A stretch of 64,000 nt of DNA from Balanoglossus misakiensis. Taxonomy: Eukaryota > Animalia > Hemichordata. The stretch lies in contig CM082577.2 of assembly GCA_040954595.2 (NCBI GenBank), positions 14,329,903-14,393,902 on the forward strand, written 5' to 3'. Within the stretch, counting starts at the first letter, position 1; each line of letters opens with the position of its first letter. Made by a program: the position numbers and the translations under genes. The notes beneath the pieces were generated by a model. The model did not search any database and was not told the origin of the DNA. It saw only the letters and a list, made by a program, of their open reading frames with translations. Positions 10,201 through 38,500 of this stretch are shown here, in pieces.

Positions 10201-11157
10201 TGATAGTTCTATCAGAGGGCGGTATTCAGTATCTTGCCCAATGTAAACGTGACGTTACCATAGAGTCCAGTATGTTTGATGTCAGATATGTTTTTTACTA
10301 CCTCGGCAGGATATCGGTTGCGTGCATTGATATATCAGTATTTGTCAGGTGAATCAGCACATGCACATAGTCTGGAAAATGACAGAACAACAAACAATGA
10401 AGAATTTCAGAAAGATTTGTGATTTGAATCGGACAGGCGACCACTGTTCGCTTCGACACTTAACCTATTTTAGTGGCGGTCTGCAGTTGGGGTCATGAGA
10501 TCATGAACCTCTAACCAATAAAAGTACACAATTCAATTTACAAATGACAAGAGTTTCACCGAGTTTGTCAGAGACTCACACGATTCAAGACTTTGTAGTG
10601 CGTGAATGAATATCGCTGAGAAATAACGCAAAGCTCAGTCTTAATATGTATCACAACGATATTTTAAAAAAATCGATTGATACAAATTGTTTTTCGTTGG
10701 AATATTCGACATGATGCGCCTTAACGTAAAGGGTGAATGCCTTATGTGGAAATGCGGAACTTCACGTGAGCCGCCGTCACGGCGGCGCCAAGATGACTGG
10801 TTTGATAGTTCTGCCAGAGGGCGGTATTCAGTATTGGTCCATGTAAACGTGGCGTTACCATAGAGTCCGGATCAGGCGATGTTTGTTGTTCTAGGTGTTT
10901 TTATTACCCCGGCAGGAGTTCGGTTTCGCGCATTGATATACCAATATTCGTCAGGTGAAGCAGCACATGCACAACGATCAAAAGAAGACGGACGGGTCTC
11001 TTTGCGCTGAAAATCTTGTGACCGGGAAGGACGAGTTAGAAGTTCAAGTGGCTGATACACATCGCAACCATCTAGTGTGTTACATCAGACAAGCAATATT
11101 GCAGTAACTGTTCTTCAACACTTCTTAATCATCAGAACGAAGACCAACGCGAAGATC

Positions 11158-11382
11158 ATGAAGTGTTCATTTGTTGTCGTCATTTTGCTGTGCTGTTTGA
11201 TTCCGGCGAATTCGGTGCCAGCCTTTTTAGAGGTGCCACGACGGATCCACGAAGTGAATAAAGTTCGGCCAAATATGAAAATTGGAGCCGAACGAGTCAT
11301 CGAAGAAACTGACAAAAACAAACGGGGTGAGCACCTTCAAAGGGTGTGTCCTCCAATGTGCTGCCTCCCTCCATATTGCTGA
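11158..11382 (+). CDS. Small secreted prepropeptide, copy 1 (74 aa); predicted mature peptide GEHLQRVCPPMCCLPPYC
   Basis: ATG in AAGATCATG context, hydrophobic signal MKCSFVVVILLCCLIPANS, charged pro-region, dibasic KR, 4-Cys C-CC-C tail, and AATAAA at ~11594. The ORF is conserved in three paralogues. Confidence 0.8.
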   Translation: MKCSFVVVILLCCLIPANSVPAFLEVPRRIHEVNKVRPNMKIGAERVIEETDKNKRGEHLQRVCPPMCCLPPYC

Positions 11383-12510
11383 TCGACCACCATAACCATT
11401 ACGAAACAAGCGGGTGCCAGCCTTAAAGGCAAATGTCTACCTGACTGTTGACGTCTATATTACTGCTTTCATATTTACAAGAATTCGAAGGAAAATACAC
11501 AGATGAAAAACTTCTACTTCCAGAATATATACTGTCTTTGAAATAGTATGTTACAACTATAACCTTAACTGCATAGGAATCTTTGGGACAATGAATAAAA
11601 CGGACGCGTTATTCAACATAACCTAATGACTTCACACAAGTGGACAGTGCCAGAATTATTATCCAACAACTATGAATATCACAATTCCCCGATCCTTAAT
11701 AGGCATATCCAAATGTTCAAGCCCAGCACTGACCAGGAAAAGTGTCTCTCTACGTACGGCCACGAGTCTTACTTAGGAATACGGACTGCTATGAAAAACG
11801 CCACAAAACTATTAATGACTAAATCTCGTTGATGGAAGACACTAAACAGGAAGATAATCCTTAAATTTTCTTCCATACTTTCACTTGTATTGCCTTAATT
11901 TGTCTCTCTTTGATTTGAATCAATTTTAGAGGTAAGATGATGGTTGTGATGATCATCGGACTCAGAATTTAGACGACTCATTTTCTTGTCATTTTGCACA
12001 GATCCCACGGAATGGAAGCGCAATGTATAACACCATGTAATTTGAACACTTTGGGACAAGGGATTTGTATCTGCCAAATTTGACAACTTGCCGTAATTTA
12101 GTAATTATTGATATTCATAATTGAGTAATTTTTCATTCCCGCTTAGCAACCTGATAATTTTACTTATCTGTGATCGGTGTGTTTTACGACTCATACAAAA
12201 TAAAAATGCCTTGTCAAAACATGACTGAGTTGTCATGAGTTCAATGTATCCGGCAGAGAATGCTCTGTAGGAAACTGAGGGCTGCTTATTCGACTAATAA
12301 ATTCTCTGAGTGTGACATTCTAGCGTTTAAGAAGTCTTTGCGAAAGCAGTGCCGTTCTTAATGGGTGCATGCATTTGCATGGCATAGGACTGTTCTACTA
12401 TAACCAAAATTTGATAATAGTTGAAGATGTTTATGGACTATTTTGTCACAGTTTGTGGGGAGGAGGTGAACAGGTTTATGCCACCAAGGTCTTATGTTCA
12501 GGCCAATTAT

Positions 12511-13630
12511 GTATATATATCGTATGACTAACGAGGCGATATCCATAATATCAACCGAGGACGAAGTCCGAGGTTGATATTATGGATGACGCCGAGGTAG
12601 TCATACGATATTTAACATACACAACGAGTGAAAGGTGCAGGCCCCTCTACAAGTAAACACCCCTCAACCGACAATACAGTGTTTAAACATCTTTTGTATG
12701 GACCCTAAGCGGTTGATATCAGCCTAACTTTCAAAATGGTATGGTCCTACTTACGGAAAGTATTTAATTATTCAGCGTTTTGCACCTGGGATGCATATAT
12801 TACCTAGTTCAACCAATTATTGTTTAGTAATAAGCTCACACGCAATGTTTCTTCCAATTGTATTGGCTGTGCATGTTTTACACATGCACAATGGCATATC
12901 TTATAATATAAATGCACGGCCACGAGGCACAATTTCTTTCTACCTGAACGTGTCATAGTGGCAGCATGGCGCATGAGGTGTATCCCGATTTTTCTGATAT
13001 CTCTGATGAAGAGTTAATTGAAGCCTCACAAGCAGCAGAATATTTGAACGAGCTTGGCTTCGAAAATATGGATATAGCAGTCAGCAGCATTCCTTCGGTG
13101 AGTCACGAATTCTTTTATTCATTCCGCCATTTTCACCTTTTTATTGTGTACGTTGTCGTTGAACATGCAAGTAAGAATGTATATTGAATCATTTTTTATT
13201 TCGTTAAAGGACATTCCCAGAGGCGGTTTGCTGACCCGGTGTCGGATTCCTGCGTACAGGGGTTGCAAAAAATTCCATTCCCAAGAATACTCAACGCCGT
13301 AATATGTGGGCGCTACGGACTTTCAACGAATGGGCCATGGCCCGAAATGTTACATTTTGTAGTTTTGTCTGCATTTTTATTTGGAGGTAGGTCGTGATAT
13401 TGTCTCGAGGCGTAGCCGAGAGTCAATATCACGACCGTACCGCCAAATATTCATTTTCGAGGCATGATGGCTGAAATATCACGAGACGAAGTCGAGTGAA
13501 ATTTCTGCTATCATGCCGAGAGTTCAATAGGTTGATATCACCCCACCCCAAAAATATCACCTCAAAATGAGGTTGCTCTCTAAAATATCAACGGCTAAAT
13601 CTATTGTATTATCTGTGACGAGTTGTGTAT
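12511..13630 (+). mobile_element. Non-autonomous Crypton-like (DUF3504/tyrosine-recombinase family) deletion derivative with long hairpins
   Basis: The empty site GGCCAATTATCAGTAG is visible at the next unit junction (~17664-17678), which fixes the boundaries. The coding remnant 12966-13097 plus 13210-13348 reads ...RRFADPVSDSCVQGLQK/NSIPKNTQRRNMWALRTFNEWAMARN (1-nt frameshift), resembling the Crypton/ZMYM/KCTD1 DUF3504 N-terminus. Hairpins at ~12518-12611, ~13391-13437 and ~13462-13516. Confidence 0.65.
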
Positions 13631-14427
13631 CAGTAGAAACACCTAGACAATGACAGAACAACAAACAATGAAGAATTTGCTGAGGCATTTATGTTTTTGA
13701 ATCGGACAGGAGACCACTGTTTGCCTCGACACATAACCTATTTTAGTGGCGGTTTGCCGTTGAGGTCATGAGATCATGAACCCCTAACCAATAAAAGTAC
13801 ACAATTCAATTTACAAATGACAAGAGTTTCACCGAGATTGTCAGAGACTCGCACGATTCAAGACTTTGTAGTGCGTGAATGAAAATCGCCGAAAAATAAC
13901 GCAAAGCTCTATTAATATGTATCATAACGATATTTTCAAAATAAGATTAATACAAATTGTTTTTCATTGGATAATTCGACATGATGCGTCTTAACGTAAA
14001 AGGTGAGTGCCTTAAGTAGAAATGCAGAACTTCACGTGAGCGACATGGCGGCGCCAAGCTGGGAGGTTCTATAGTTCTGCCAGAGGGCGGTATTCAGTAT
14101 ATTGACCCATGTAAACGTAACGTTACCATAGAGTCCGGATCAGGCGATGTTTGATGTCAGGGGTGTATTTTTACTACCCCGGCAGGAGATCGGTTGCGCG
14201 CATTGATATACCAATATTCGTCAGGTGAAGCAGCACATGCACAAGGATCCCAAGAAGACGAACGGGTCTCTTTGCGCTGAAAATCTTGTGACCGGGAAGG
14301 ACGAGTTAGAAGTTCAAGTGGCTGATACACATCGCAACAATCTAGTGTGTTACATAAGACAAGCAATATTGCAGTAACTGTTCTTCAACACGTCTTAATC
14401 ATCACAACGAAGACCAACGCGAAGATC

Positions 14428-14628
14428 ATGAAGTGTTCATTTGTTGTCGTCATTTTGTTGTGCTGTTTGCTTCCGGCGAATCCAGTGCCAGCCTTTTTAG
14501 AGATGCCACGACGGATCCATGAAGTGAATAAAGTTCGGTCAGATACGAAGATTGCCGCTGAAGGGATCATCGGAAAGATTGACAAAAACAAGCGGTGTGC
14601 ACACCTTGGCTGTCCTCCTGATTGTTGA
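14428..14628 (+). CDS. Small secreted prepropeptide, copy 2 (66 aa; mature CAHLGCPPDC); divergent, possibly truncated by a premature stop
   Basis: Signal and pro-region are paralogous to copy 1. The tail reads TGT CCT CCT GAT TGT TGA CGT CCA TAA TAT TGC, with TGA and TAA at the Cys and Pro codons of the copy-1 CC-L-P-P-Y-C motif. Confidence 0.65.
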   Translation: MKCSFVVVILLCCLLPANPVPAFLEMPRRIHEVNKVRSDTKIAAEGIIGKIDKNKRCAHLGCPPDC

Positions 14629-16444
14629 CGTCCATAATATTGCCATCCAATTGACAAGTATTCGAAGGATAAATTCGGATAGAAGAGCTACTACTTCCAG
14701 AATATATACTCTCTTTAAAATGGCCTGTTACAACTATAACCATAATTGTATAGGATTCTTTGGGACGAAGAAAAAATAGGTGTGTTATTTTAAAGACTCT
14801 ATAATGACTTCACACAAGTGGTCGTTGCCAGAATTATTATCCAAGAACTATGAATATCAGAATTCCCCGATCCTTAATTAGAATTTCCAAATGCCCAAGC
14901 CCAGCACTGACCACGAAAAGTGTCTCTGTACGTATAGCAACGCGTCTTACTTCATAGGAATACGGACTTCTAAGAAAGACACCAAAAAACTATTGATGAC
15001 TAAATCTCGTTGATGGAAGACACTAAACAGGAAGATAATCCTTAAATTTTCTTTCATACTTTCACTTGTATTGCCTTAATTTGTCTCTCTTTGATTTGAA
15101 TCAATTTTAGAGGTAAGATGATGGTTGTGATGATCATCGGACTCAGAATTTAGACGACTCACTTTCTTGTCATTTTGCACCGATCCCACAGAATGCAAAT
15201 GTGTAACACCATGTAGTTTGAACACTTTGGGACAAGGGATTTGTATCTGCCACATTTGGCGATTTACCGCAATTGAGTAATTGTTGATTCCCGCTAAACC
15301 TGATAATTTTACTTATCTGTAATCTGTGTGTTTTACGAGACAGAATAAAAATGCCATGTCAAAACATGACTGAGTTGTAATGAGTTCAATGTATCTGCAG
15401 AGAATGTTCTATAGGAAACTGAGAGCTGCTTATTCGACTACATTCCCTGGGTGTGACATTCTAGCGTTTAAGAATTCTTTGCGAAAGCAGTAGTGGCCGT
15501 TCATTATTGGGGCATGCATTCCCATGCCAGAGGACTGTTCTACTGTAACAAAAATTTGATAATAGTTGAAGACGTTTATGGACTATCTTGTAACAGTTTG
15601 TGGGGAGGAGGTGAACAGGTTTATGTCATCTAATTCAAGGTTTTATGTCAGGCCAAATATCAGTAGAAACACCTGGTAAAAGACAGAAAAACAAACAATG
15701 GAGAATTTCTGAGAGATTTATGATTTTTAATAGAACAGGCGACCACTGTTCGCCTCGACACTTAACCTGTTTTAGTGGCAGTCTGCAGTTGGGGTCATGA
15801 GATCATGAACTCCGAACAAATAAAAGTACACAATTCATTTATAAATGACAAGAGTTACACCGAGTTTGTCAGAGATTAACAAGATTCACTACTTTGTAGT
15901 GCGTGAATGAATATCGCTGAGAAATAACGCAAAACTCTCTTAATATGTATCACAACGATATTTTAGAAATAAGATTGATACAAATAGTTTTCCGTTGGAT
16001 AATTCGTCTTAACGTAAAATGTGAATGCCATAAGTGGAAATGCGGAACTTCACTTGAGCGGTCACGGCGGCGCCAAGATGACAGGTTCGATACTTTTGCC
16101 AGAGGGTGGTATTTAGTATCTTGGCCCATGTAAACGTGGCGTTACCATAGAGTCCGGATCAGGCGATGTTTGTTGTTCTAGGTGTTTTTATTACCCCGGC
16201 AGGAGTTCGGTTTCGCGCATTGATATACCAATATTCGTCAGGTGAAGCAGCACATGCACAACGATCCAAAGAAGACGGACGGGTCTCTTTGTGCTGAAAA
16301 TCTTGTGACCGGGAAGGACGAGTTAGAAGTTCAAGTGGCTGATACACAACGCAACCATCTAGTGTGTTACATCAGACAAGCAATATTGCAGTAACTGTTC
16401 TTCAACACTTCTTAATCATCAGAACGAAGACCAACGCGAAGATC

Positions 16445-16669
16445 ATGAAGTGTTCATTTGTTGTCGTCATTTTGCTGTGCTGTTTGATTCCGGCGAATTC
16501 GGTGCCAGCCTTTTTAGAGGTGCCACGACGGATCCACGAAGTGAATAAAGTTCGGCCAAATATGAAAATTGGAGCCGAACGAGTCATCGAAGAAACTGAC
16601 AAAAACAAACGAGGTGATCACCTTCAAAGGGTGTGTCCTCCAATGTGCTGCCTCCCTCCATATTGCTGA
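16445..16669 (+). CDS. Small secreted prepropeptide, copy 3 (74 aa); predicted mature peptide GDHLQRVCPPMCCLPPYC
   Basis: Protein identical to copy 1 except E>D in the mature region. Confidence 0.8.
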   Translation: MKCSFVVVILLCCLIPANSVPAFLEVPRRIHEVNKVRPNMKIGAERVIEETDKNKRGDHLQRVCPPMCCLPPYC

Positions 16670-18200
16670 TCGATCACCATAACTATTATGAAACAAGCGG
16701 GGTGCCACCCTTGAATGCGAATGTCTGCCTGACTATTGACGTCTACATTATTGCTTTCAAATTTACAAGAATTCGAAGGAAAATACACAGATGAAAAACT
16801 TCTACTTCCAGAATATGTACTGTCTTTGAAATAGTATGTTACAACTATAACCTTAACTGCATATAGGAATCTTTGGGACAATGAATAACAGAACCTATAA
16901 TGACTTCACACAAGTGGACGGTGCCAGAATTATTATCCAAGAACTATAAATAACAGAATTCCCCGATCCTTAATAGGCATATCCAATTGTCCAAGCCCAG
17001 CACTGACCAGGAAAAGTGTCTCTCTACGTATGGCCACGAGTCTTACTTAGGAATACGGACTGCTATGAAAAACGCCACAAAACTATTGATGACTAAATCT
17101 CGTTGATAGAAGACACTAAACAGGAAGATAATCCTTAAATTTTCTTTCATACTTTCACTTGTATTGCCTTAATTTGTCTCTCTTTGATTTGAATCAATTT
17201 TAGAGGTAAGATGATGGTTGTGATGATCATCGGACTCTGTCACATTTGGCGACTTGCCGTAATTTAGTAATTATTGATTTTCATAATTGAGTAATTATTG
17301 ATTCCCGCTAAGAAACCTGATAATTTTACTTATCTGTAATCTGTGTGTTTTACGACTCAGACAAAATACAGATCCCATGTCAAAACATGACTGAGTTGTC
17401 ATGAGTTCAATGTATCCGGCAGAGAATGCTCTGTAGGAAACTGAGGGCTGCTTATTCGACTACATTCCCTGGGTGTGACATTCTAGCGTTTAAGAAGTCT
17501 TTGCGAAAGCAGTGCTGTTCTTAATGGGGGCATACATTTCCATGGCATAGGACTGTTCTACTATAACCAAAATTTGATAATAGTTGAAAATGTTCATGGA
17601 CTATTTTGTCACAGTTTGTGGGGAGGAGGTGAACAGGTTTATGCCACCAAGGTCTTATGTTCAGGCCAATTATCAGTAGAAACACCTACAAAATGACAGA
17701 ACAACAAACAATGAAGAATTTGCTGAGAGATTTACGTTTTAAATCGGACAGGCGACCACTGTTTGCCTCGACACATAAACTATGTTTTTGGCGGTCTGCA
17801 GTTGGGGTCATGAGATCATGAACCCCTAACCAATAAAAGTACACAATTCAATATACAAATGACAAGAGTTTCACCGAGTTTGTCAGAGACTCACACGATT
17901 CAAGACTTTGTAGTGCGGGAATGAATATCACTGAGAAATAACGCAAAGCTCTCTTAATATGTATCACAACGATATTTTCAAAATAAGATTAATACAAATT
18001 GTTTTTCATTGGATAATTCGACATGATTCGTCTTAACGTAAAAGGTGAGTGCCTTAAGTGGAAATGTGGTACTTCACGTGAGCGACATGGCGGCGCCAAG
18101 CTGGGAGGTTCTATAGTTCTGCCAGAGGGCGGTATTCAGTATTTTGCCCCTGGTAAACGTGACGTAACCAAGGTGTCTGGCCCGGCGATGTTTGACTTAA

Positions 18201-21092: not shown

Positions 21093-23788
21093 GCCGGTTA
21101 TCCATGACAAGGTTGACACATGCGCATCGCTCTGCTGGCGTAAATGACCCCACCAAAGACATTTAGACAACCCCGAGACAATTTGGTTTGACACGTTGGT
21201 TGCACGGTTGAACGCTTGGCTCAGTTTATCGTACAAAGGTAAGTGTTCCGGCCTTTTCTTATGGTAGAATTTACAAAGATACATCTTACGGCAACCAAAA
21301 CTATAACATTGAGAAACAGCGTTGTTACTGAGTCATATATAGGTATTTTTTCTTTAAGTTTATTACTTAAACTCCTGGGGGTTTTTTTAGGAAGTAGTCT
21401 TTCTTTCGTACGTGAGATGCCACAAAATGTTCAGTTGTCGCCGTGAAATTTATTACCGTCGGAACAGTTGGTATCTTCCGACCGCATTCTCTCGCCTGTA
21501 TGTCACGTTGCCCTAGTTATCGCTTTTCTGGGGGGATCCTTGTCCTTAGAGCACCAGCGATCGAGGTCAACAACCGATGTGACCTCGGACAATACTCTCC
21601 ACGTCCCAGCCCCCACTTTTTTATAGGTCACCTTAAAAGTTCGATTGTGCTATACCTCTACTTTCATCTTTACAGTGAAAGCTGCAGAGAATTTAAATTA
21701 TTTTCAACAGTTGACACCATTTTATCTCTATGCAGACGTGACTGAAAATGACTGACTTCGAATTTTCCTCTCTCACCGCAACACTGGTTTTACTGACTAC
21801 AATAACCGCCATTATTATTTGGTTAGTATGTGACGTATTTGATCTGACATTTACCCTTTTCCTTGTCTATATATTGACTTGTTCTGCTTTCAAAGCATAC
21901 AGCAGTTCCCAATGTTCTGTCTGTGACATAATCTGTATATGTGTACCATTGTGTAATGTGCAGACCCCACGCTGGCAGCTTTGATATGCTTGAAAAGGCT
22001 TCGGTATTTTTGGAGAGTACTCAATTCTGGAGGTCACTCAGTCTGTGGTTTACTGCGTAAAGTGGCCGGGGTCAGACCCTGGCCTGACCTTACGGTCAGG
22101 CCTGACACAGACTAAGTGACAAAACACAATTGCTCTCAGCCCAAGCTAAGAATAAGACAAAGACGGTTACAATACAATTCTGATAAAAGATGTTCCCCTG
22201 GGAGTTGAGCTTGCGTGCTAAATGCTGGGTGTTAGCGCCAAATTACAATTTGGCGCGAATATTCGCCTAGCAGCTAGGCCGAAAATGGGCCCTTATTTAA
22301 GTGTCATGACACCACTGTTGATGAAAAATGAGTTCTCATTCGGACTTGAAATAAATTCCCCCTAAAATCAACGCTGACTTTACACAATACGCGGTGTTGA
22401 TAAGCTGCATGAATACCCGGCATTCCATAACGCTTCAGGTACCTTTCTACCCGCCTGTAATCAAGAGCTTTAAACACTCATTTCCAGGTGGTCTGTCTCA
22501 CCGTTTACATTCTTTGCGAACTGCAACGTTTCTGGGCCGAGACCATGGCCGTTTGTTGGCAACGTGATCCATCTTTATGGTGGTAAAACACTTTCCATAA
22601 AACCGTGATGGAAATGATACGCCAGTATGGAGACGTATTCTGGTAAGTTAATTCTAAATTGTCCACTGTATAAAGGCTTTATTTAAATATGCCCAGATAT
22701 GAGCGTGAACAAATACGAGTCGTCTGCGATATGGTAGGTCTACAGGTCGAGCTTAATTACAATGTACGCCATCATAACATTACGATACACCCAATTGAAC
22801 TGCTATGATAAAGTAAAACATTTGCAATTGTACCCGTGAAAAGTCCAAAGCTCACTTGGTCAATTGCATGGCCAGTTTCAACGACAAACACAAGCAATAC
22901 AGCACAAAGCAACACAGATCAGAATCAAGTACGTGTAAGAAAGACATATGGAACAAAGACATAAAACCGCATGAGTAAACAACACCAGCAATACTTTACC
23001 CGGCGGTAGAGGGCGACATCAACGATGTAAACGTTAAAACACAGTGCGGCAAAGCTCCGTGTGTAACGCAAGCGACGTTTATATGCATTTGAAACGCCGC
23101 CGATTTTTGAATGACGACAAGAATGACGTCCATGTGATCAATAAATGTTTGTCATTTACAGTTGGTATGAAGGTATGGCTCCTTTCATTACGATTACTGA
23201 CCCGAAGTTGCTGAAAGAGATTCTTATCAGACACTTCAGCAAATTTCAGGATAGAAATGTGAGTGTCAAATTTCTTTTGCTATTAGTTATAGCATGTAAT
23301 TATAGGCTACATCTGGCGGAGAGAACAATATAATTTTAAATGTGGTAAGATGCCGTACAGAACGCCCTTTCCGTTCGTCGATAGGTTCAAGGCGCCCAAA
23401 CTCGCCGTGTATAGGTATTCACTTTCACTGCGGACAGACCCCCCTCAAATGTAAACAAAAAAGATGTCTGCTCACTGTGTACCGTGTTTCAGCTGAGCAG
23501 TGATGATCGATCGTACCGGTGCTTTGAAACCCAAATAATATGCAACGCAAAAACTAACGGAGATGTTGTGAAAATACCGCGAAGTATGCATTCGGACATT
23601 CGCGTCCGCACCGCCCTCCTCTACGCATCGGACAATACGCGGCGATAATGTCCTGGTACCCCCATGAATACTTTGCGATATTATCGTAATAACCCCATAA
23701 TAACACCACGTGTCATATATACAGACCACCCATTGCTGCGCGACACGTTGTCGACACAGTGAACTTGTTTTACGGTTACAGTGGATCG

Positions 23789-24252
23789 TACGGTAGCCCG
23801 TATGTGACAGACCAATTCACTAATTAAGTGTACACAACTTTAATTTTGTCCCGACAAAACTCTCTAATTGGTGGACACAACTCTAACTTTGTCGGACAAA
23901 ACTCTCTAATTGGTGGACACAACTCTAACTTTGTTGGACAAAACTCTCTAATTGGTGGACACAACTCTAACTTTGTCGGACAAAACTCTCTAATTGGTGG
24001 ACACAAAACTCTCTAATTGGTGGACACAACTCTAACTTTGTCGGACAAAACTCTCTAAATTTGTCGGACACAACTCTCAAATTGATGGACACAACTCTAA
24101 TTTCGCCTGACACAGCCCTTTATTTGTTGGACACAACTCTAATTTTGATGGGCGCAACTTTCTAATTTTGTCGGACACAACTCTTATTCGCGTGGACAAA
24201 ACTTTCTTTTGCTCAAGGCGGAAATTCACTATATATCCCACAATACAGTTCG
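23789..24252 (+). repeat. Left TIR (464 bp) built from 42-bp tandem subrepeats
   Basis: Unit AAAACTCTCTAATTGGTGGACACAACTCTAACTTTGTCGGAC. Reverse complement of 29017-29436, with one extra unit. Confidence 0.92.
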
Positions 24253-24334
24253 CGTCAACGTCACTGGATATTACTGCCATTTGAGTCTGATGCATGATGC
24301 AGGAGATGGAGTTACACTACATCCTTCAAACAAA

Positions 24335-26376
24335 ATGTCGAAATTTATTCGTGTAACTGACAAAGTCAGGACCGGCGAAGCAGTCGAACTTCCAACAGAG
24401 GAAAATGGGACAGTTTTACTCAGTACATTGGAAGGTCAGTTTCAGGTGAGGAATGCAGGAAAGGTGTTGGTCTATTTGGCAAAGTCAAATCTTTCCAGAC
24501 TTACAAATATGAGAAGACCTCCTCTGACTTCAGAAAACTGCCTTTTTCCAGTAGCAAGAAGAAATCAAAGCAAGAAGATGACATTGTTACTATAAATATT
24601 GGTGCCATGTCTTTCGATGAGAAAACAGGGAAACTGAAATCCCACTGGGGTAAACGTTTGCCTATAAAAGTTGAAAAAAATGCAAATTACTCAACAATTT
24701 TGGAAATTGGTTTGAGTAAATGGAAAGCTTTTGGGAGAAATTTTATCAAGGATGGCATGAAGTATTTTCTTCTCTTTGATGATGGCTCTAGAGCTCTTTT
24801 CATACCAGGAGAAGAGAAAAAAGAGTTTTTTACTCTTTGTAAATATAAAGAAGCTTTAGGTAAGGAGTACAAAAGAATATGCTTGTATCTCTGTGCAGAG
24901 AGTGATTTTGATAAATCGCAGGGATTTAATGATTGTGATGTAGGAGTTGATGATGAGTTGCTTTGTAATTATGATGTTGACGAAAGTAATTGTAATTATG
25001 ATGTTGACGAAAGTAATTCTAATTATGATGTTAACAAAAGTAATTGTAATTATGATGTTGACAAAAGTAAGAGGAGGAGAGTGAAATTGGGTGAGACGTC
25101 CAACACAAGTCAAACTCATGTAGTGTCTGATGATGGATATGCCATGCTTTTCAGTGATGACATTGGTGATCAATTCTCTGATTCCGAAAATGATGTCAAT
25201 CTAGAGTCTCCTAAATTCCCTGAAGAAATACCACTTGAAGATATTCTGAGTAATTTGGCAAAACAGATTAACCAAGAAAAAATATCAAAGTTTAACATTG
25301 CAAGGAATAATCTTTTTGAAGGTGTGAAAAGAGGGTTAAAGCGAAAGACATTTAGTCCTTGCAATAAAATCTCTGTCAAATTTACAGATGATGTGGGTTC
25401 CTCAGAGGGGGCTGTTGATGCTGGAGGCCCTATGAGAGAAATGCTGTCTCTCAGTGTGAGCTATATCACAAATTCTCAGTTGTTTGATGGTGATGAACAT
25501 CAGAAATACATTTCCTGTGTGAGCAAATGTATTGATGAGAATGAATACTTCTATGCTGGGCAAGTGATTGCCATGTCTTTACTTCATGGGGGTCCTCTAC
25601 CACATTGTTTTGCTGAGCACTTTTTTGATGCTGTTGTATTTGGGCCAGACAGTGCAAAACCTACATTGGATGACCTCCCACAGGATAGTTATGCTAAAAA
25701 TGAGTTGACAAAGTTGAAGAATGCCCCTTTAACTGAGGTTGATAGTGTGATAACTGGAAGCTTGGATAATTTCCTTGAATTAGCTGGGACATGGAAAATA
25801 ATGAGATGTGAAGATGACAAAGATAGGGTTATCCTGTCCACAGTAAAGTGGTATTTATATGGAAGGAACAGACCAGCACTTGACCAATTTAGAGACGGTC
25901 TGTCTACCCTTGGAGTTCTTGCAGCCATGCAGCAGTATCCAAATAGTTTCAAGTCAGCATTCTGCCAAAAAAGCATCACTCTCACAGCAGATATGTTTGC
26001 TGATGTTGACAGGGTAAAATACACAAGAAGTGAAATTGGATCTAATAGACACATTGTTGAAAGTAATGTATTATCCTATTGGGCAGACTTTCTTCAGGAT
26101 GTTGAAGAGGGTGAAGTTTCCAACATAACACTTTCACAAATTCTCATGTTCATTACTGGTTGCAGTGAATTTGTGTATGGATTAACATTAGAAATTCAAT
26201 TTCTACATCAAAATGAGGAAACTGGTACACCATCAAGGTTTCCTAAGGCCAATACTTGTGCTTGTATACTTCATTTACCTGTTATACATAAAACATACCC
26301 TGACTTCAAAAACGATGTTGCATTTGGCATTGCAAATGCTAAGGGTTTTTGGATATGCCTGAACATTAAAGTGTAA
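24335..26376 (+). CDS. Transposon-borne HECT E3 ubiquitin ligase (G2E3-like HECT) with an N-terminal TDP-43-NTD-like segment; two apparent 1-nt indels (~24443, ~26350)
   Basis: HECT motifs ISVKFTDDVGSSEGAVDAGGPMRE, YFYAGQVIAMSLLHGGP, LDQFRDGLSTLGVL, ILMFITG and FPKANTCACILHLP (catalytic Cys codon 26257-26259). The HECT frame is open from 24361. ATG 24335 in the adjacent frame encodes MSKFIRVTDKVRTGEAVELPTEENGTVLLSTLEGQF. Confidence 0.88.
24964..25068 (+). repeat. In-frame 27-bp tandem repeat (CNYDVDESN, about 4 copies) in the acidic linker of the HECT ORF
   Basis: TGTAATTATGATGTTGACGAAAGTAAT repeated with minor variants. Confidence 0.85.
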
Positions 26377-27049
26377 AATGAGACATAACTACAGTTTTTC
26401 ATCTATTTTCACACGGTGTCCAGACTCGGCCATTCACTGATGACCAAGCTTAAGTTCACACACTATTTTTAAACCTCAGAAGCAAGTTAAGCAAATTCTA
26501 TGTAATAAGATGTGCTGCTGTTTATGCATTCAACTGCCAAACAGTACACCTGGTATGCAAGAGATTTGATTTTGCCTTTTGGCAAGTGGTTTCACTGTTC
26601 AGGTGTGATAAATTTAGACAAAATTGTTCCAGATTTGTGCCAGAGAAAAAACATGGTTCCCAATGTCATCACTACAAATGTGCATGTGTTCATGTTGCCC
26701 ATTTATGAATGTCTATCAATGGACAAAACATTTTATTGGGAAATCAGTAAGAAAAGAGTAGTTTTTACCTTTTTTACTTCGTTCTCCTTTAAAAAGTGTT
26801 CACAATTCTGTTGAGCATCAGTTGTTTAAACCGATTCGTGTAGTAGTCACAAGTTTTAGAATAGAACTGTACTCTGTAGTATATTATATTGTGCTTGATC
26901 GACCAGTTTAGGGTTTAACCTTCTGTTAGATGTTTACTGTAACACTTGGAAATAAAAAATGATACTCTGTTCATAAATTAGTTGTGTATGTTCATTAAAG
27001 TGTGTGTGAACACCATTATGTCATGAAACGAGGTAATGCTGTACTAATG

Positions 27050-27075
27050 TCTGTGTGTGTGTGTGTGTGTGTGTG
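27050..27075. repeat. (GT)n microsatellite
   Basis: Run of TGTGTG seen directly. Confidence 0.9.
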
Positions 27076-27797
27076 AATATGACATAGTGTGTGACATTTG
27101 GGAATTATGACTTGCTAATTGACAGCTAATTTGCATATTTAATGATTCTATGCAATTAGCAATACAACTCTTGAAATACTGTTCTGATATTCATGAAATT
27201 TGCCAGCTTATACTGTTTTTTACACAGATCAAACAAAACCTCACTGCTGCCATTTTGGCAATAATTTCAGATTTTCAACATTAATTTGGTGTATTTGCAA
27301 TATATCATAAAACTACAGTAAGAATCCCAAACTGATCTTAGGGGAGAACCATTTGATTTTTTGGGTGGGGGGGGGGGGGGGGTTATTGCAGAAGGAAACA
27401 AATTCATTTGCAATGCCATGTTTGAAATGGAGTAAAGAATGTCACACAAGTTAGAAAATCTCATTCTTTCATTTTTAGGCACTTGTCAGTTTATGAGCAG
27501 TTTATTCTTGTCCACCGTTCATTTGAATAATTTGGCAATCAAAATGATAGGTAAAATGAACAAATCTACGCTATTTTGATGTTTTATGAATATATTTTAT
27601 TATATTCAAAGACAATCTTACTACCATGTTTGCTTGGATTACTACCAATTTAAAAATGTGGTAGTCACAACTGATTGCTGCGAAAAATGTTTATTTCGAG
27701 CCATGTTTTGCAGCAAGTATATCACAGACTGGACTGGAAAATGTCGCTCTCCCGTTGGTGAAGGAAGCGCCCTCAATCGACGGGTTTACATGTCTAA

Positions 27798-29009
27798 TTA
27801 TACACCATCATTTGCGCACGTAAGTAAATGCTCGTACAGCTCTTTTGCCTCGCGCCAATTTGCTGGTTCGGACAGGTTTAAATATCGAAACACATATTGG
27901 AAATACTCCTGGTATTCATTATTATAATCTACTTCAATGATTTGGGTTTCTGCATAATTTATTTCATGTTCTGGTACAGGCAACATCAAATTGTCAGTGC
28001 CACCATGGTGCTCTGGGAGGAAATACAATGAATCAGGTCTCCCACTGACGGTTTCATGTCGAGATTTTCTTATGTAGTGTGTGTTCCAATTTTCCTTCAC
28101 ATGATTTAAATCTTCTTGGAGGAGACGGGCAAAACAAAACCACAAACACTCCTTATGTAGTGTGTTACTACTGTCAAAGGTACCCTGTGCTTCAAAATCT
28201 TTAAAAAGATTGATCCACCATGTCGAACGATTTCTGCGCAGAAACGACCACCATGCCTCAATTCTTTGATTACGTTGTGATGCAACATATCTATGTGCAT
28301 CTGAGTTATCGCGAAAGAAACACTGAACCGCTGCAACTGTGCCATTTTCAGTACCCAAATCAGTATCTAGTTCTATAGGACACCCTCCAAACTCACGCAC
28401 AGCTTGTAAGTAGTATGCAGCCACATTGTCAGGCAAGTTATTTGAACGTGTAACATACAACCATAAAATCTTTCTGCTGTATCCGTCAATACACCCGTGT
28501 ATTGGGAAGCCAAAGGGCTTTAGTTTGTCGTACCCGTCCATATGCCACACACAGTTGGGTCCTGGGCACAAATACTCCCTTCTTTTAAGACGGTGTGTTC
28601 TCCGTAGTTCACTTCCTTCTGGGTCTAATTCCCTCAACATTTCTTGAACTACAATTCTAGGCACATGGATGCCTTTCAGCTGCAGGGAATGCCACACTGT
28701 TCGATACCCTCCTATACATCCAGGACCATCCAATAGCTGAATGACAGAGTCTCTGACGACACTAACATCGTAATCGGGAGATCTTCGCCTTAAATTCAAC
28801 CGTTGCAATCGTCGTAACAGCGTTCTGCGACTCATATAAACGTCGCAGTATTTTGACAGATATAATAGAATTTCATTGTACGTATACCCCCTATAAAAGA
28901 AATAGGTGATGAGGCCTTCTTCATCGTAGTTGGCGACCGAGTGGCTGCTCATTTCTGTGCACATCGGCGACACTCGATAAGGCAAGGTTGGTGTGAAGAC
29001 GTCGTCCAT
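27798..29009 (-). CDS. IS3/IS481-like integrase-core DDE transposase, 403 aa, intronless and intact
   Basis: N-terminal HTH-like region (GYTYNEIL...SRRTLLRRL), then RREYLCPGPNCVWHMDGYDKLKPFGFPIHGCIDGYSRKILWL, DTDLGTEN and SQRNQRIEAWWS. About 33 residues separate the second D from E. Confidence 0.93.
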   Translation of the reverse strand: MDDVFTPTLPYRVSPMCTEMSSHSVANYDEEGLITYFFYRGYTYNEILLYLSKYCDVYMSRRTLLRRLQRLNLRRRSPDYDVSVVRDSVIQLLDGPGCIGGYRTVWHSLQLKGIHVPRIVVQEMLRELDPEGSELRRTHRLKRREYLCPGPNCVWHMDGYDKLKPFGFPIHGCIDGYSRKILWLYVTRSNNLPDNVAAYYLQAVREFGGCPIELDTDLGTENGTVAAVQCFFRDNSDAHRYVASQRNQRIEAWWSFLRRNRSTWWINLFKDFEAQGTFDSSNTLHKECLWFCFARLLQEDLNHVKENWNTHYIRKSRHETVSGRPDSLYFLPEHHGGTDNLMLPVPEHEINYAETQIIEVDYNNEYQEYFQYVFRYLNLSEPANWREAKELYEHLLTCANDGV

Positions 29010-29016
29010 TTTAAAT

Positions 29017-29436
29017 CGAACTGTATTGTGGGATATATAGTGAATTTCCGCCTTGAGCAAAAGAAAGTTTTGTCCACGTGAATAAGAGTTGTGTCCGACA
29101 AAATTAGAAAGTTGCGCCCATCAAAATTAGAGTTGTGTCCAACAAATAAAGGGCTGTGTCAGGCGAAATTAGAGTTGTGTCCATCAATTTGAGAGTTGTG
29201 TCCGACAAATTTAGAGTTTTGTCCGACAAAGTTAGAGTTGTGTCCACCAATTAGAGAGTTTTGTGTCCACCAATTAGAGAGTTTTGTCCGACAAAGTTAG
29301 AGTTGTGTCCACCAATTAGAGAGTTTTGTCCGACAAAGTTAGAGTTGTGTCCACCAATTAGAGAGTTTTGTCGGGACAAAATTAAAGTTGTGTACACTTA
29401 ATTAGTGAATTGGTCTGTCACATACGGGCTACCGTA
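29017..29436 (-). repeat. Right TIR (420 bp)
   Basis: Reverse complement of 23789-24252 apart from one 42-bp unit, a 2-bp indel and isolated substitutions. Confidence 0.92.
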
Positions 29437-32400
29437 GGATCGGTTCGCTCAGCAATCCTTGTGGTGCCAGATTATATTGTGTATAAACAATTCTTCTATT
29501 GGTAGAGTCCGTTGAAAAATCCACGTGGCGTGAAGGGATTACTGTTCATGGAAGGGAAACGATGCGATGAAAGGAAATGCGGACACTTTTGTCACCGACT
29601 TTCAGCTCGGGTAAGATTAAGGAGGTAAGAAGACCAACACATCATTCACAGTCAAAATCTATAAATCGAAATCTTACAATTACCGGTACATCGAAGACAG
29701 TTAAGGTTACTAGTGTGTTGTTATTGCTGTTCGTACATTGTTTATGGTGTTTTTGCTGGCCAATATAAAACTTGAACAATGCAATAATGTCTCTGCAATA
29801 TGTCAATAATCATTAAAACAACAACAACAACAACACTGTATGTTGTGGTGATATGTTGTTTACCTTCAATTTTTCAGATGTCAAATCTAGTTAATGACAT
29901 AACTTCAAGACTGTTGGATATCCTTGAAACATGCAGCGTCAGTGGTAACCCAGTAAATGTTCGAAGGTGTGTTGGCCAATGTTGCAGATGAGAAATGATA
30001 CCAGACAACATGAAATGATTTACCATTCACATACTCAGATAGGGGCAAAGACTCCATTAATACAGCAATCTACCACAGGATCATACATAAAGTATAACAT
30101 GTTAAAGTTTAAAACATACAACACACGTACAGAATCAAGGTAAGCGATCAGCGCGATTATGTTTGACAAACAGAAAAAGTATTATTTTTTATTTCAGATA
30201 CTTTTTCCAATTATCTCTCCATAGGGTATTTGGCAACTACGCACTCGATGTCATTGCATCTGTTGCCTTTGGTATAGATATAGTGTCACAGACGGACCTT
30301 AATAATCAGTTTGCAGAAAACGCTAGAAATATGTTGTCACGGTTACCTGGCAGGACGGGCGTGGCATCTTGGTTTCTCGGTAAGCGGCGTCTTGGTTGAA
30401 TCTAGAATGCGCCTGTTCTCGTCCCTCTCTGTATGTACATCGAAAACAATGTTACAAAACATTTGCCGGTACATTGCTAGAGAAGACTGTAACCTTGTGC
30501 CACCGAATATTGTCCAAATGGAATATCCATTTAATGCAGTTACTTTATAGAACTAAGAATTAAAACTATCAAATGTATTTTAGCAACATAAGATTTTCCG
30601 ACCTCCATGAGACCTCTATGGTATCTCGCGAGGCTAAAAATTACATGTATCTTTCAACTCTAAACTCACCTAGTTTGATACAAAGCTTGACTTGTATTCA
30701 CTACCTAGCAACTCATTGCTACGATAATTAACATAGTCTCGCGATATCTCGAAACTCATTTCGATTCAGCATTTTCTTTGCCATTTCAGCGATGTTTCCG
30801 ATGATCAGATTTCTTGCTGAACGGATTGCGGCGGCGACAGAAAGGAAGCCGTTGCAGTTCTTCGATCAATCACTTGACGAAGTTTTAGCTGTGAGACAGG
30901 CATCGGGATCAGTAAGTCCTCCATTATACAGATTGCATCTGTATACTATAAGGTGTCACTGACACATAAGATAAAGATTCATCTTAGCAAATCTAATTGT
31001 ATCGATAAAGTTGTTTTCGGTAATTTGAGACTGTGCACGTACTTGACACTTTTGCAAAAAAATGAGAATGCAACTAAAATTAGTTTGTCGCTTCCCATTT
31101 GGAATAAAACCCCTAATGACTAGAGCATCATCATTTTCTCCCGAAATGATGAAATGATTGTTTGGAATGTTACTTCCACTTCGACACTCTTATCATCTTC
31201 ACTTGAAGGAACGACGGGACTTTCTTCAAGTTCTGCTCGAGGCAGCTGAAAATCACATCATGGAAAGCAACGACAGTGAGTCAATGCAACCGAACGAACG
31301 TGAAGTCAAATTAGCAAAGGCAAAGGAGAAGACAACACTAAGTAGGGCAGAAATCAAGGCTCAGCTTATGCTGTTCCTATTAGCAGGTAATTCATACTGA
31401 TGCGACCCAAGATTCTTTTCATAAGCAAACTCGGAAACGAGGCTACTGGAGGGGTTAGCGCCCTCACATTTTAAAATAAAGAGGGTCTGTAGTTCTATAT
31501 TTCCGAGATCCATTATTTTGAATGACGTCTAAGTTTGACAGCTATCGTCCTATTTGGGGAAGGTCACCTGCGCTAGTCTACTAAAATGGTGCGCTGTGAC
31601 ATTATTATTAAATGTGTACTGTCCCTTTAACACATGCCCCTTTAACATAATGAAACTAAAGAGACTATATGAATGTCGTTTGGCAGGTTACGAAACATCA
31701 GCCCTTACACTTTCGCACTGTACTTATTTACTTGCAAGACATCCTGAGGTTCAAGACAAGTTGATTAAAGAAGTGGACCACGTGTTAGAAGGAGAGGTAA
31801 CCACTTTTAAATGAATGGTCCCTTATTTGAGTATTACAGAAGTGGGAAATTTGCCGCTACATTTTGTAATTAGTCCTGTTTAAACAGCTGTCGGAATGAA
31901 GCAGGCATTATTTTACCGGCTGTCCTAGCTGATCTTACGACTTTTTATACAAATGAATTCAACAATATCGAGTTGATATCCGCGATAGTAAATTTGGAGG
32001 ATATCGTTCAGCCCTAAAATGTTTACAGGGAGAACATAATTTTTTTTGAATGATTCAGTTTAGTCTCACACTTAAACCAACCCAATTTTACATGCGAGGC
32101 CATTCATGCAGATCTTTGTGTGGATTCAGGTATTGATTTCACCATTGTGTGTTTTGTATGTTAGCAACAGTAAACTTGAACACACATTTACTGTTTTCTA
32201 CAGAGCAAGTTGGACTACAACTCAGTGAACGTCCTTCCATACCTGGACATGGTGATATCTGAAACGCTGCGCCTTTATCCAACGGCACATAGGTAAACAG
32301 TGGAAATACAATACAGACATTGTCCATAGACAAACATAACAACGGAAGACAGAAGGACGATTAAACTGACATTGTTGTACATGCGTAGAAACGAACCAAA

Positions 32401-35501: not shown

Positions 35502-38500
35502 ATGGCAACTTGGACATTTCTTAGGCTGTTTCCAGCTTCACGCACGACCAGAGGAACAGCAACAGATAAGCAAGAGCTGCAAGGCACCGATCTTCGTCGT
35601 AGTTTCTTTATTCTGAGCTTCCTCTGTTCGGTAATCGTTGTTGGTTTAATCATTGCAACGCCGGCTGATAATATCAGATATACGCAACAAACCCTGCAAG
35701 TGAGTACACGTTTTCATACATTTCTGTCATTCTGTTATCGGACAAACTTCACTGTTTCATTTTACTTCAATTTAATCCACATACAAAGCGGCTTGTGCCT
35801 AATGTACATTGGTAAAGTATGATCGAAACTCAGATTTTACATCATTAAAGGTAGTATGTGTCTCGGGGACAGATTATCAGAAGTATGATCGTTCTCCAAA
35901 CCTTTCAATCTTTGGGAACTGGGTGTTCGCCATCTTGTAGTTATAAAAACCAATACTTTCAATTTTCTCCCAAGAGATTAACACATAGATTTGTGATTAT
36001 TTTGAATTCACATTTGAGGTAAATTTGCTGTCTCATTCAAAAGTAATATTCTCAATTTTACGAGGACATAATCTAAAGTTGCCTTGGGCAAAATCTGAGA
36101 AAAAGTTTGACTTTAATTTTCGAGACGCATTATGCCTTGAAGCTCCCAATAACTGCCACTTGTGGCACCCATTTAATCTATAAAATATTTCAATCTTCTT
36201 ATCCAAAGTCGACAGACATGTGTGCATACCACGCTAGTTGTATACTCTTACAATGGGCGGCTGAATAAATTTGTACGGCACCCGTTTATTCTTCAACTTG
36301 CTTATATTTTACATGTACAGCTGGACTTGCCCCAAGTCTGTGGGCCTCTCTATGTCATAATAAATTAAATACATTTCAGAAATTAGTTTGTTCCGAGTCT
36401 CAATAGCGTGTGTGGAGTGAACGCGTAGGTCTTGGGATCGCGCAGGCCCACGCGCTTGCATTTGGTGGGCAGTAACCTAAACTCAACTCGGTGCAGAAAC
36501 TGTCTCAAGCAAGCACACGAAAGGTAACTTTAAAATGATAACATGTGGAAGTAGTTTTAGGATGTAACGGTAAGGCATTCCACAACTGAGGCGTACAGAC
36601 GGAAAAAAGGTCTGTCGAATTTAAAAGCAGTACGGCCAATAGGTTATTAGGGCTTTAAACAAGTTCATTTAGTGTTCGGGAATCAACTTGATGGTTACGG
36701 GATTTAAACTCGAACCACCTTTACTAACCAACGTAGGAAGCGATTGCATAATACCATCAATGTGTATCGTTCAGACATAATTTACTACGAAATTGCATTG
36801 TGCGACAACCTTTTCCATTTTTTTCAGATCAGCGATCGAATCGGACGTGACGATAAATCTACAGTTCCTACTCCGAGTGGTCGATATCTGATGCCTGTGT
36901 TATTGTTTCCTCGATCGGGTCCACAGAACAACTACCTGAGATTGAAGAGCCTCCTTACACTGGCAGTTTTACAAAATTGGACCTTAGTTTTATACCCAAT
37001 TCGAAACCACCACACCCAGAACAGTACTAGCGCAGTCAGAAATATCAGTGAAGTTTTCGATGTTGACCTTCTAAAACAACTTGTGCATGTTATTACACCT
37101 CACGAATTCCACGAGAAGTGCAACGGAAAAGCCATAGTTGTCGATTGGTACAGGGAAGGCCGAGGCGCTTTGTTGAAAGAGATACATGTCGATACCGGAT
37201 TGCATTTTCAGAAAATAGCAGTCGAGAAAAACAACGCCAGTAAAAGATGTAAATTCCCGCGATGCGATGCATTATTTGCCAAATATCCATGTGTCATTTA
37301 TCGATCCCTGCGTACGGCGACCTTTACGAGTATTCGAAGTGCACAGATCGCCGAAAAAGTCGAACAATATCTTCGAAAGGCACCTTACATTCGGCAGATG
37401 GGAGAAGAGGGGGTGCGCCAGATTTGTGACGGCCGCCCGTTTCTCGCTTTTCACTGGAGAAATCGAACTGGAGAAAGGTAAATTATCACAGGGAGAATTT
37501 CTCATAGGAAGAGGTGGCAAATTTACTTGAAGACATAGAATCGAAGCGTATTGCACACTATGAATGTTTGCAAATTTAAACAGCAACACTGATTCTTAAA
37601 GTTAACTTTAGAATTTATTATAATGTGAGCCTTAACAACTCAATTTCTCCATCTCAGCTATTTCCTCATTCCCTTTCGGTAATCATGTCTAATTTACTAT
37701 TGGAATTCATGAGAAATCTCTGATTGGTCACATGCACTAAAATACAGGGACCTCTGTAATTGTGCATGTTGCTGTGATCCTTCGATTTTGACCACTCAGT
37801 GAAGGCGTTACATGACAAATCATTTACTTTACAAAGCAATGCAACAAAGGGGTTGATTTGGGCTGGCAGTGTCCGTTGATGAATGGGCTGTCTTTTGAGA
37901 TGAGTGACAAACTGTTTAATTTACCGACAGGTGCGAGACAGGGCGCAAGAAGAGAGGCTGTGAATTTGACGGACTAAATCCAATGAGTAAAAATCGACGA
38001 TTTGTGAAAGCCTTAAAAGACTTCATGAAAACGGTTAATCTGAGTTGTATGTACATTGCATTCCCCCCATTTTCTCAAGTGAGTATAACACTGTTCCCTG
38101 CAACGCATGTTGAAGGCTGCAACTATCAGGTACGATACAGAAGTAAACAATATGTCACCATGCTTGATGTTGTTAGCCAGCTGTTCAGAAAGTTCTACCT
38201 TAGAGAAACTACAGCACAGAAAAATGCTGACTCGGCATTTCATACCATCTTTTAAAGCCCCAATAGCTGCATTTTTTAATCGATAATTTACTTCAATTTT
38301 CTCCTCATCCTAAGTCGGCAGGCGACAAAATATTGCATTTGTGGAAATTCTAATACCCATTGTGCGCATATCACGATGGTTGTATATTCTTGCAAAGGCC
38401 GGTCGCGACTAAACGGGTATGTTCATTTAAAGGAACCATTGTAAGTTTGAGAGGAAAATCATGAAAATAACGAAACTAAATGTCAGCTAATTGGGCCTTT

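Follow-up and report, generated by a model that had tools for sequence, protein, structure and literature searches.

Within a 64,000-nucleotide stretch of the genome of the hemichordate Balanoglossus misakiensis (contig CM082577.2; the whole stretch is called the window here), a DNA transposon of the IS3EU/GingerRoot type carries a gene for a putative HECT E3 ligase that opens with the first half of the N-terminal domain (NTD) of TDP-43. The ligase gene in the window is broken; by its sequence, a protein model from Ptychodera flava (P0001; RefSeq XP_070570922), which has a full NTD, a ubiquitin-like (Ubl) domain, and the N-lobe of HECT, is the same fusion. With a probability of about 0.5, the captured TARDBP exon is the polymerisation module of the ligase. 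The features concerned, in window coordinates, are the following.

23783..23788, no strand: left target-site duplication GGATCG, the same 6-mer as at 29437-29442
23789..29436, no strand: DNA transposon of the IS3EU/GingerRoot type, 5,648 bp, ends TACGG..CCGTA
23789..24252, + strand: left terminal inverted repeat, 464 nt, carrying 21-nt tandem units
24335..24443, + strand: ligase exon 1, surviving 5' part, the first half of the NTD in 36 codons (PF18694, PDB alignment)
24438..24446, + strand: deletion junction, with AGTTTC microhomology, the old acceptor AG, and one G where the contigs have four letters
24447..26376, + strand: ligase exon 2, in a stop-to-stop ORF at 24361-26376, with a basic stretch, Ubl, acidic linker, and HECT
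24577..24921, + strand: predicted ubiquitin-like (beta-grasp) domain, common to sister elements
25231..26376, + strand: HECT domain, G2E3-like (PF00632, 45.3 bits against a cut-off of 23.9)
27798..29009, - strand: DDE transposase of the integrase-like kind (PF24764 rva_4, 113.7 bits), an open frame of 403 aa convergent with the ligase
29017..29436, - strand: right terminal inverted repeat, 420 nt
29437..29442, no strand: right target-site duplication GGATCG, the same 6-mer as the left copy

The element and its ligase gene

IS3EU/GingerRoot elements are defined by TA..TA ends and 6-bp target duplications (excerpts of PMC10045372 and PMC12730594). The window element has TA..TA termini, a 6-bp duplication (GGATCG), and an integrase-like DDE transposase (PF24764), for which the Pfam search also returned a weak rve match. 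The left and right inverted repeats are identical at 419 of 420 aligned bases, which suggests that the insertion is young. It probably sits in an intron of a cytochrome P450 gene (exon pieces within 23145-31814), since P450-like exon pieces lie on either side of it, one above the cut-off (31539-31811) and one weak (23145-23330). A total of 1,108 transposase relatives were found at E<=1e-50; among the best 120 of these, the nearest named relative is a coral protein (63%) and none is from Ptychodera. Other repeats in the window include tandem arrays at 53199-61302 (~3.06-kb units with 37/38-nt subrepeats) and at 10112-18178 (units of ~2-3 kb), and long ORFs at 36708-37481, 44402-45553, and 46175-46696 encode O-fucosyltransferase, galactose-3-O-sulfotransferase, and MAM domains.

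The ligase gene begins at ATG 24335, which is 83 bases internal to the left inverted repeat (repeat end 24252). The frame from this codon comprises 86 residues, the first 36 of which are TDP-43-like and are those that the initial annotation of this DNA had given. That annotation had likened them to the TDP-43 N-terminus, and the likeness was confirmed by Pfam: the segment scored 29.5 bits against TDP-43_N (PF18694; cut-off 27.1, E 6.8e-7), covering positions 1-32 of 74 in the profile, so that only the first half of the domain is present, as had also been proposed. Its placement within a transposon and 5' of a HECT ORF agrees with the element ends and the Pfam matches. In a PDB search with the segment, eight of nine matches were TDP-43 chains (best E 2.9e-5). 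A search of the ESM Atlas yielded leads that were all under 0.9, with TDP-43 rows at TM below 0.5. Against a profile built from host NTDs only (146 rows), the segment reached E 1.8e-10 versus E 2.5 for the runner-up among 2,136 six-frame window peptides, and a chance match to the TDP-43 NTD is therefore ruled out. A TARDBP paralogue or pseudogene was likewise rejected, as the segment stands without an RRM and inside inverted repeats with a target duplication; no RRM domain, which marks a TARDBP orthologue, was detected by Pfam in the window ORFs or in P0001.

Exon 2 is 66% identical to P0001 over shared columns. Its middle domain (24577-24921) was modelled by AlphaFold2 from 16 sequences with a pLDDT of 91.9, and the top Foldseek rows were ubiquitin, Ubl, RBD, PB1, and LC3 structures at E about 1e-3, none at E<=0.001. 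VIA gave Z 8-9.3 and an rmsd of about 2.8-4 over 77-102 residues, and the domain is predicted to be a ubiquitin-like beta-grasp. The acidic linker contains four near-repeats of ~21 nt (24960-25070) that are absent from P0001. The window HECT is a putative E3 ligase in that the domain scores above its cut-off and keeps the C-lobe Cys, the codon of which (26257-26259) falls in the same column in all 10 of the rows that reach it. An extra T at 26346 alters the last HECT residues in the window copy and abolishes the Phe four residues from the C-terminus, which we take to be a HECT feature; this Phe is present in the frame given by public contigs of the runs X1 and X2, described below, and in nine relatives.

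Among the 20 listed matches to the HECT ORF, P0001 was the best (60% identity). It carries the whole of TDP-43_N at residues 7-89 (63.4 bits, profile 2-74 of 74), followed by the middle domain also present in the window and by the N-lobe of HECT, in which the model ends at 512 residues. A HMMER search with the P0001 NTD returned 287 matches at E<=0.001, the best two kinds being P0172, a 96-residue ORF on a 733-bp ENA contig (74% to the P0001 NTD; TDP-43_N 71.2 bits), and P0174, a 106-residue Saccoglossus model without an RRM. The window segment, P0001, P0172, and P0174 form one clade in an NTD tree of 150 rows (FastTree local support 96, over only 83 columns), and a longer loop preceding the basic face is common to the three clade members in which this region is present. 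It should be noted that two of the 150 rows (P0195 and P0315) are repeats and not NTDs and were left out of the NTD counts; 146 rows are of host type. In the HECT tree, the window groups weakly (90/81, unstarred) with P0001 and the Saccoglossus model P0011, in a group that also includes a long-branch beetle row. A word-seeded search with P0001 residues 1-100 among proteins of 281-896 residues recovered P0001 alone (52 candidates), a scan of viral contigs found no relative, and no acorn-worm TDP-43 was among 20 NTD matches looked up by name. Four further ORFs that lack an RRM (P0176, P0225, P0286, and P0194; by Pfam for the first three) contain two TDP-43_N stretches in tandem.

The deletion junction and the origin of the first exon

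Public contigs (Logan) containing this stretch were found in two of three runs (X1 and X2), all from one sample. One X1 contig covers both 24327-24443 and 24447-24517 but separates them by 632 letters, the first 30 of which continue exon 1 in frame as Pro-Gly-Ala-Cys-Gly-Leu-Arg-Tyr-Ser-Val; the first eight of these residues (Pro-Gly-Ala-Cys-Gly-Leu-Arg-Tyr) are a conserved NTD motif. In an X2 contig, 24447 is preceded by four exon letters, which follow a TTTCAG acceptor with its pyrimidine tract. Because these contigs carry the continuation of the NTD and the acceptor, the window copy is, at the level of sequence, a deletion derivative from which ~630 nt are missing, apparently the rest of the NTD exon and the intron. 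As only 60 of the 632 extra letters were read, 30 at each end, the division between the two is an estimate: ~170 letters would be coding and ~457 intronic if the exon were as long as in P0172. As P0001 also stops in the HECT N-lobe, no single sequence found spans the entire NTD-Ubl-HECT protein, which counts against the favoured reading of the fusion as a polymerisation module. The motif AGTTTC closes the surviving exon and recurs directly before the acceptor AG, and since it flanks the gap on both sides, the lesion looks like a microhomology deletion of ~626 nt combined with a four-to-one letter change.

A microhomology deletion that joined exon 1 to a TTTCAG acceptor is what the initial annotation had offered as its alternative explanation, and both contigs fit it. 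Its first choice, by which one C is missing at ~24443 and a half-NTD is fused directly to HECT, does bring the frame back arithmetically but is scarcely credible and was rejected as the history of the gene, given that near-identical contigs hold 632 further letters at this point, with the NTD continuing and an acceptor at the end, and that the relatives P0001 and P0172 hold the whole domain. Of the two forms that it had envisaged for sibling copies, the one with a full NTD and an intron fits the near-identical contigs, and the one with an extra C was not found in them.

The window's own 24443/24447 junction is in none of the contigs listed from X1 and X2, and it may represent a rare copy, an allele of another individual, or an assembly error. 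Contigs of both runs are also free of the extra T at 26346 and of a 7-nt insert at 24288. The window copy is incapable of making the ligase; it retains an open transposase and near-identical ends. At 24252 and 24515-25479, contigs of X1 and X2 have loose ends in which the same inverted repeat is followed by variant starts of the transposase, as well as joints that leave out 942 and 68 letters; the joints point to further copies with internal deletions, or to subfamilies.

The end of the first exon bears on its origin. A motif at the end of the domain is present in 92 of the 146 host NTD rows, and it is followed by Gly in 60 of 77 short or RRM-less ORFs versus 1 of 15 full-length proteins. Because such a Gly is the read-through of a G|GT donor, a phase-1 intron appears to follow the NTD directly in TARDBP genes. 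At the position of Asp in the spliced P0001, P0172 reads Gly followed by a stop, and the X2 acceptor resumes in phase 1, gapless and in register with P0001. In the intact gene, the NTD exon would be followed by a phase-1 intron, as in TARDBP, and spliced to the Ubl-HECT exon. The NTD would have been captured from a host TARDBP once, in or near acorn worms, in place of the zinc ribbon or other module found in sister ligases. Capture of this kind has been described for GingerRoot in a clubmoss, where 22 of 77 elements contain pieces of host genes, exons and introns included (excerpt of PMC6839031).

Sister elements and possible roles of the NTD

The sister set consisted of 80 metagenome HECT loci, 56 with at least 1 kb upstream and 27 with at least 2 kb downstream. 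A related transposase was present in 16 of the 80 loci and in 15 of the 27 with sufficient downstream sequence. As all 16 lie downstream of HECT on the opposite strand, HECT is, on the evidence of gene order, the standing second gene of this transposase family. The N-terminal slot of the ligase, by its domain matches, is swappable and holds a zinc ribbon, a SAM, or a TDP-43 NTD. A SAM-like piece is located upstream of HECT in 7 of the 80 loci and also occurs in P0026/P0032, a further one is downstream of HECT in L006 (L014 and L006 pass the SAM cut-off), and zinc-ribbon-like starts, below the cut-off, were seen in L002 and L003. No TDP-43 NTD was found in the 80 loci, including the 56 with at least 1 kb upstream. 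The closest sister ligases, which share the Ubl, have a zinc ribbon and no polymer domain, and those with a SAM differ from them in the middle domain. At L006:776-2650, SAM and a piece of the middle domain lie just 3' of HECT, perhaps as a tandem copy. L063:18-12632 is a complete sister element of 12.6 kb. Its inverted repeats measure 252 bp, its ends read TATGG..CCATA, and its Ubl-HECT gene is rich in introns; a clear target duplication was not found at L063.

In human TDP-43, NTD chains form between one face with E14, E17, E21, and Q34 and another with R52 and R55, and the interface includes N45 and S48 (excerpts of PMC5491494); E17R or R52E alone blocks one face each (excerpt of PMC12905282). 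The six residues of the two faces are all kept in P0001 and in P0172, and the four that are present in the window (14, 17, 21, and 34), which make up the acidic face, are kept as well. In the Saccoglossus model P0174, four of six are kept, with Lys at both 21 and 55. By comparison, P0001 and P0172 keep 1 of 13 other charged consensus positions, having lost the well-conserved acidic E11 and D23, and 31-32 of 72 non-key positions. The resulting Fisher p of 2.6e-4 for interface against other charged positions is overstated because five of the six positions are near-invariant in host NTDs (137-144 of 146) and because P0001 and P0172 are kin. Retention of the interface may also partly reflect constraint on the fold, given this near-invariance and the selection of host rows by their likeness to P0001. 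The stretch that holds N45 and S48 is replaced by the longer loop.

Clustering of the ligase through an NTD polymer is the favoured and likely reading of these alignments, since both faces, which a self-polymer needs, are kept and since SAM, a head-to-tail polymer domain (excerpt of PMC5491494), takes the same slot elsewhere. Head-to-tail association of the NTD would be weak and reversible, and the resulting chains would bring ligase molecules together and so raise their avidity for a substrate. That substrate would serve transposition and could be the transposase of the element itself or a host protein of silencing or repair. Self-oligomerisation through this domain had been put forward in the initial annotation, and the kept interface residues and the SAM in the sister slot lend it indirect support. 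Points against the polymer reading are the two Lys of P0174, the loop that replaces N45 and S48, and the zinc ribbon, instead of a SAM, in the sisters that share the Ubl.

Several other proposed roles would involve host TDP-43. The transposon may have turned the domain of TDP-43 into bait by which the ligase inserts itself into polymers of TDP-43 in the nucleus and ubiquitinates TDP-43 itself or its partners, although we consider this rather unlikely. If true, the element would encode a natural TDP-43 degrader and exemplify a eukaryotic transposon counter-defence via domain theft. Should the fusion bind TDP-43, it would be a natural NTD-guided ubiquitin ligase, relevant to ALS/FTD research, and a novel type of transposon counter-defence. 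Mixed chains are plausible on chemical grounds because both faces in P0001 and P0172 agree with the host consensus at each residue.

In a separate reading, the NTD would join host TDP-43 polymers solely to bring the ligase to chromatin, nascent RNA, or DNA breaks, and the protein ubiquitinated there would be a different one. Cut-and-paste excision generates double-strand breaks. TDP-43 binds such breaks and helps the XRCC4-ligase IV complex to form (excerpt of PMC8535693), and in the closest sisters the slot is occupied by zinc ribbons, which resemble binding modules. These points and the match of both faces to the host consensus speak for such a tether, but with its altered N45/S48 loop the NTD may pair with itself in preference to the host protein, and this reading is unlikely.

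In another reading, close to the anti-silencing device suggested in the initial annotation, the captured NTD would co-polymerise with host TDP-43, which the HECT domain would then ubiquitinate and remove, relieving a TDP-43-dependent block on transposons. TDP-43 is essential in animals, so that its degradation would be costly, and because none of the 80 sister loci has an NTD, the family works without one. The residue-for-residue match of the faces to the host consensus is compatible with co-polymerisation, and heteropolymers are formed by DIX, PB1, and SAM domains (excerpt of PMC5491494). The initial annotation had further noted that TDP-43 is implicated in restraining transposons; TDP-43 inhibits L1 retrotransposition, for which the NTD is needed (excerpt of PMC9683724). 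However, the described anti-transposon role concerns L1 retrotransposons and not cut-and-paste elements (excerpts of PMC9683724 and PMC8535693), the term 'DNA transposon' has no occurrence in PMC9683724, and the L1 results are called controversial in a review (excerpt of PMC8535693). Removal of host TDP-43 is thus distinctly unlikely as the role of the fusion.

Finally, the exon may have been picked up passively, like the fragments in the clubmoss elements (22/77), contributing a start codon and a splice site and having no role of its own. The loss of two interface residues in the Saccoglossus model P0174, the broken window copy, and the shortness of P0001 are in line with this. Against it, P0001 and P0172 depart from the consensus at about half of its positions with no stop or frameshift arising, and all six interface residues and the core have been retained in both, making a roleless exon very doubtful.

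Comparison with known systems

The fusion of a TDP-43 NTD to HECT on an IS3EU/GingerRoot element is apparently unreported, the superfamily itself being known. No report of a TDP-43 NTD-HECT protein or of a transposon-borne HECT was found in the openly accessible full-text literature as judged by listings and abstracts, although annotations of IS3EU in supplements may mention HECT. The words 'HECT' and 'ubiquitin' have no occurrence in PMC10045372, PMC12730594, and PMC6839031, the terms 'TDP-43' and 'transpos' have none in the HECT survey PMC3673628, and transposons go unmentioned in the excerpts of the HECT surveys PMC2837046 and PMC3673628. The fusion would place a TDP-43 NTD at work outside TDP-43, joined to an enzyme that a mobile element encodes, and the swapping of front modules gives a handle on the role of IS3EU-borne ligases.

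Like the TDP-43 NTD itself (PF18694, PDB 5MDI/6B1G), the domain of the fusion passes the Pfam cut-off, keeps the interface residues, and is followed immediately by what ORF ends indicate to be a phase-1 intron. It differs from TDP-43 in that an RRM was not found, about half of the consensus positions differ, the loop that holds N45/S48 has an extra 5-9 residues, and a Ubl and HECT follow.

Among HECT proteins, the divergent G2E3 or 'GL-Metazoa' ligases are closest, the nearest named relatives of the window HECT being annotated as G2E3-like. PHD/RING fingers, by which a G2E3 orthologue is recognised, were not detected by Pfam in the window ORF or in P0001, and the window ligase, unlike G2E3, is transposon-borne. 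The HECT of human G2E3 is described as non-functional (excerpt of PMC3673628), whereas the window HECT keeps its catalytic Cys. Shuffling of N-terminal domains is the rule among HECT proteins (excerpt of PMC3673628), and the same is seen here.

With IS3EU/GingerRoot elements, the window element shares TA..TA termini, a 6-bp target duplication, long inverted repeats, an integrase-like DDE transposase, a second gene in opposite orientation, and the capture of host gene fragments. In fungal IS3EU, the oppositely oriented second gene is an alpha-kinase, whereas in the window element it is a HECT ligase gene that opens with a TDP-43 NTD.
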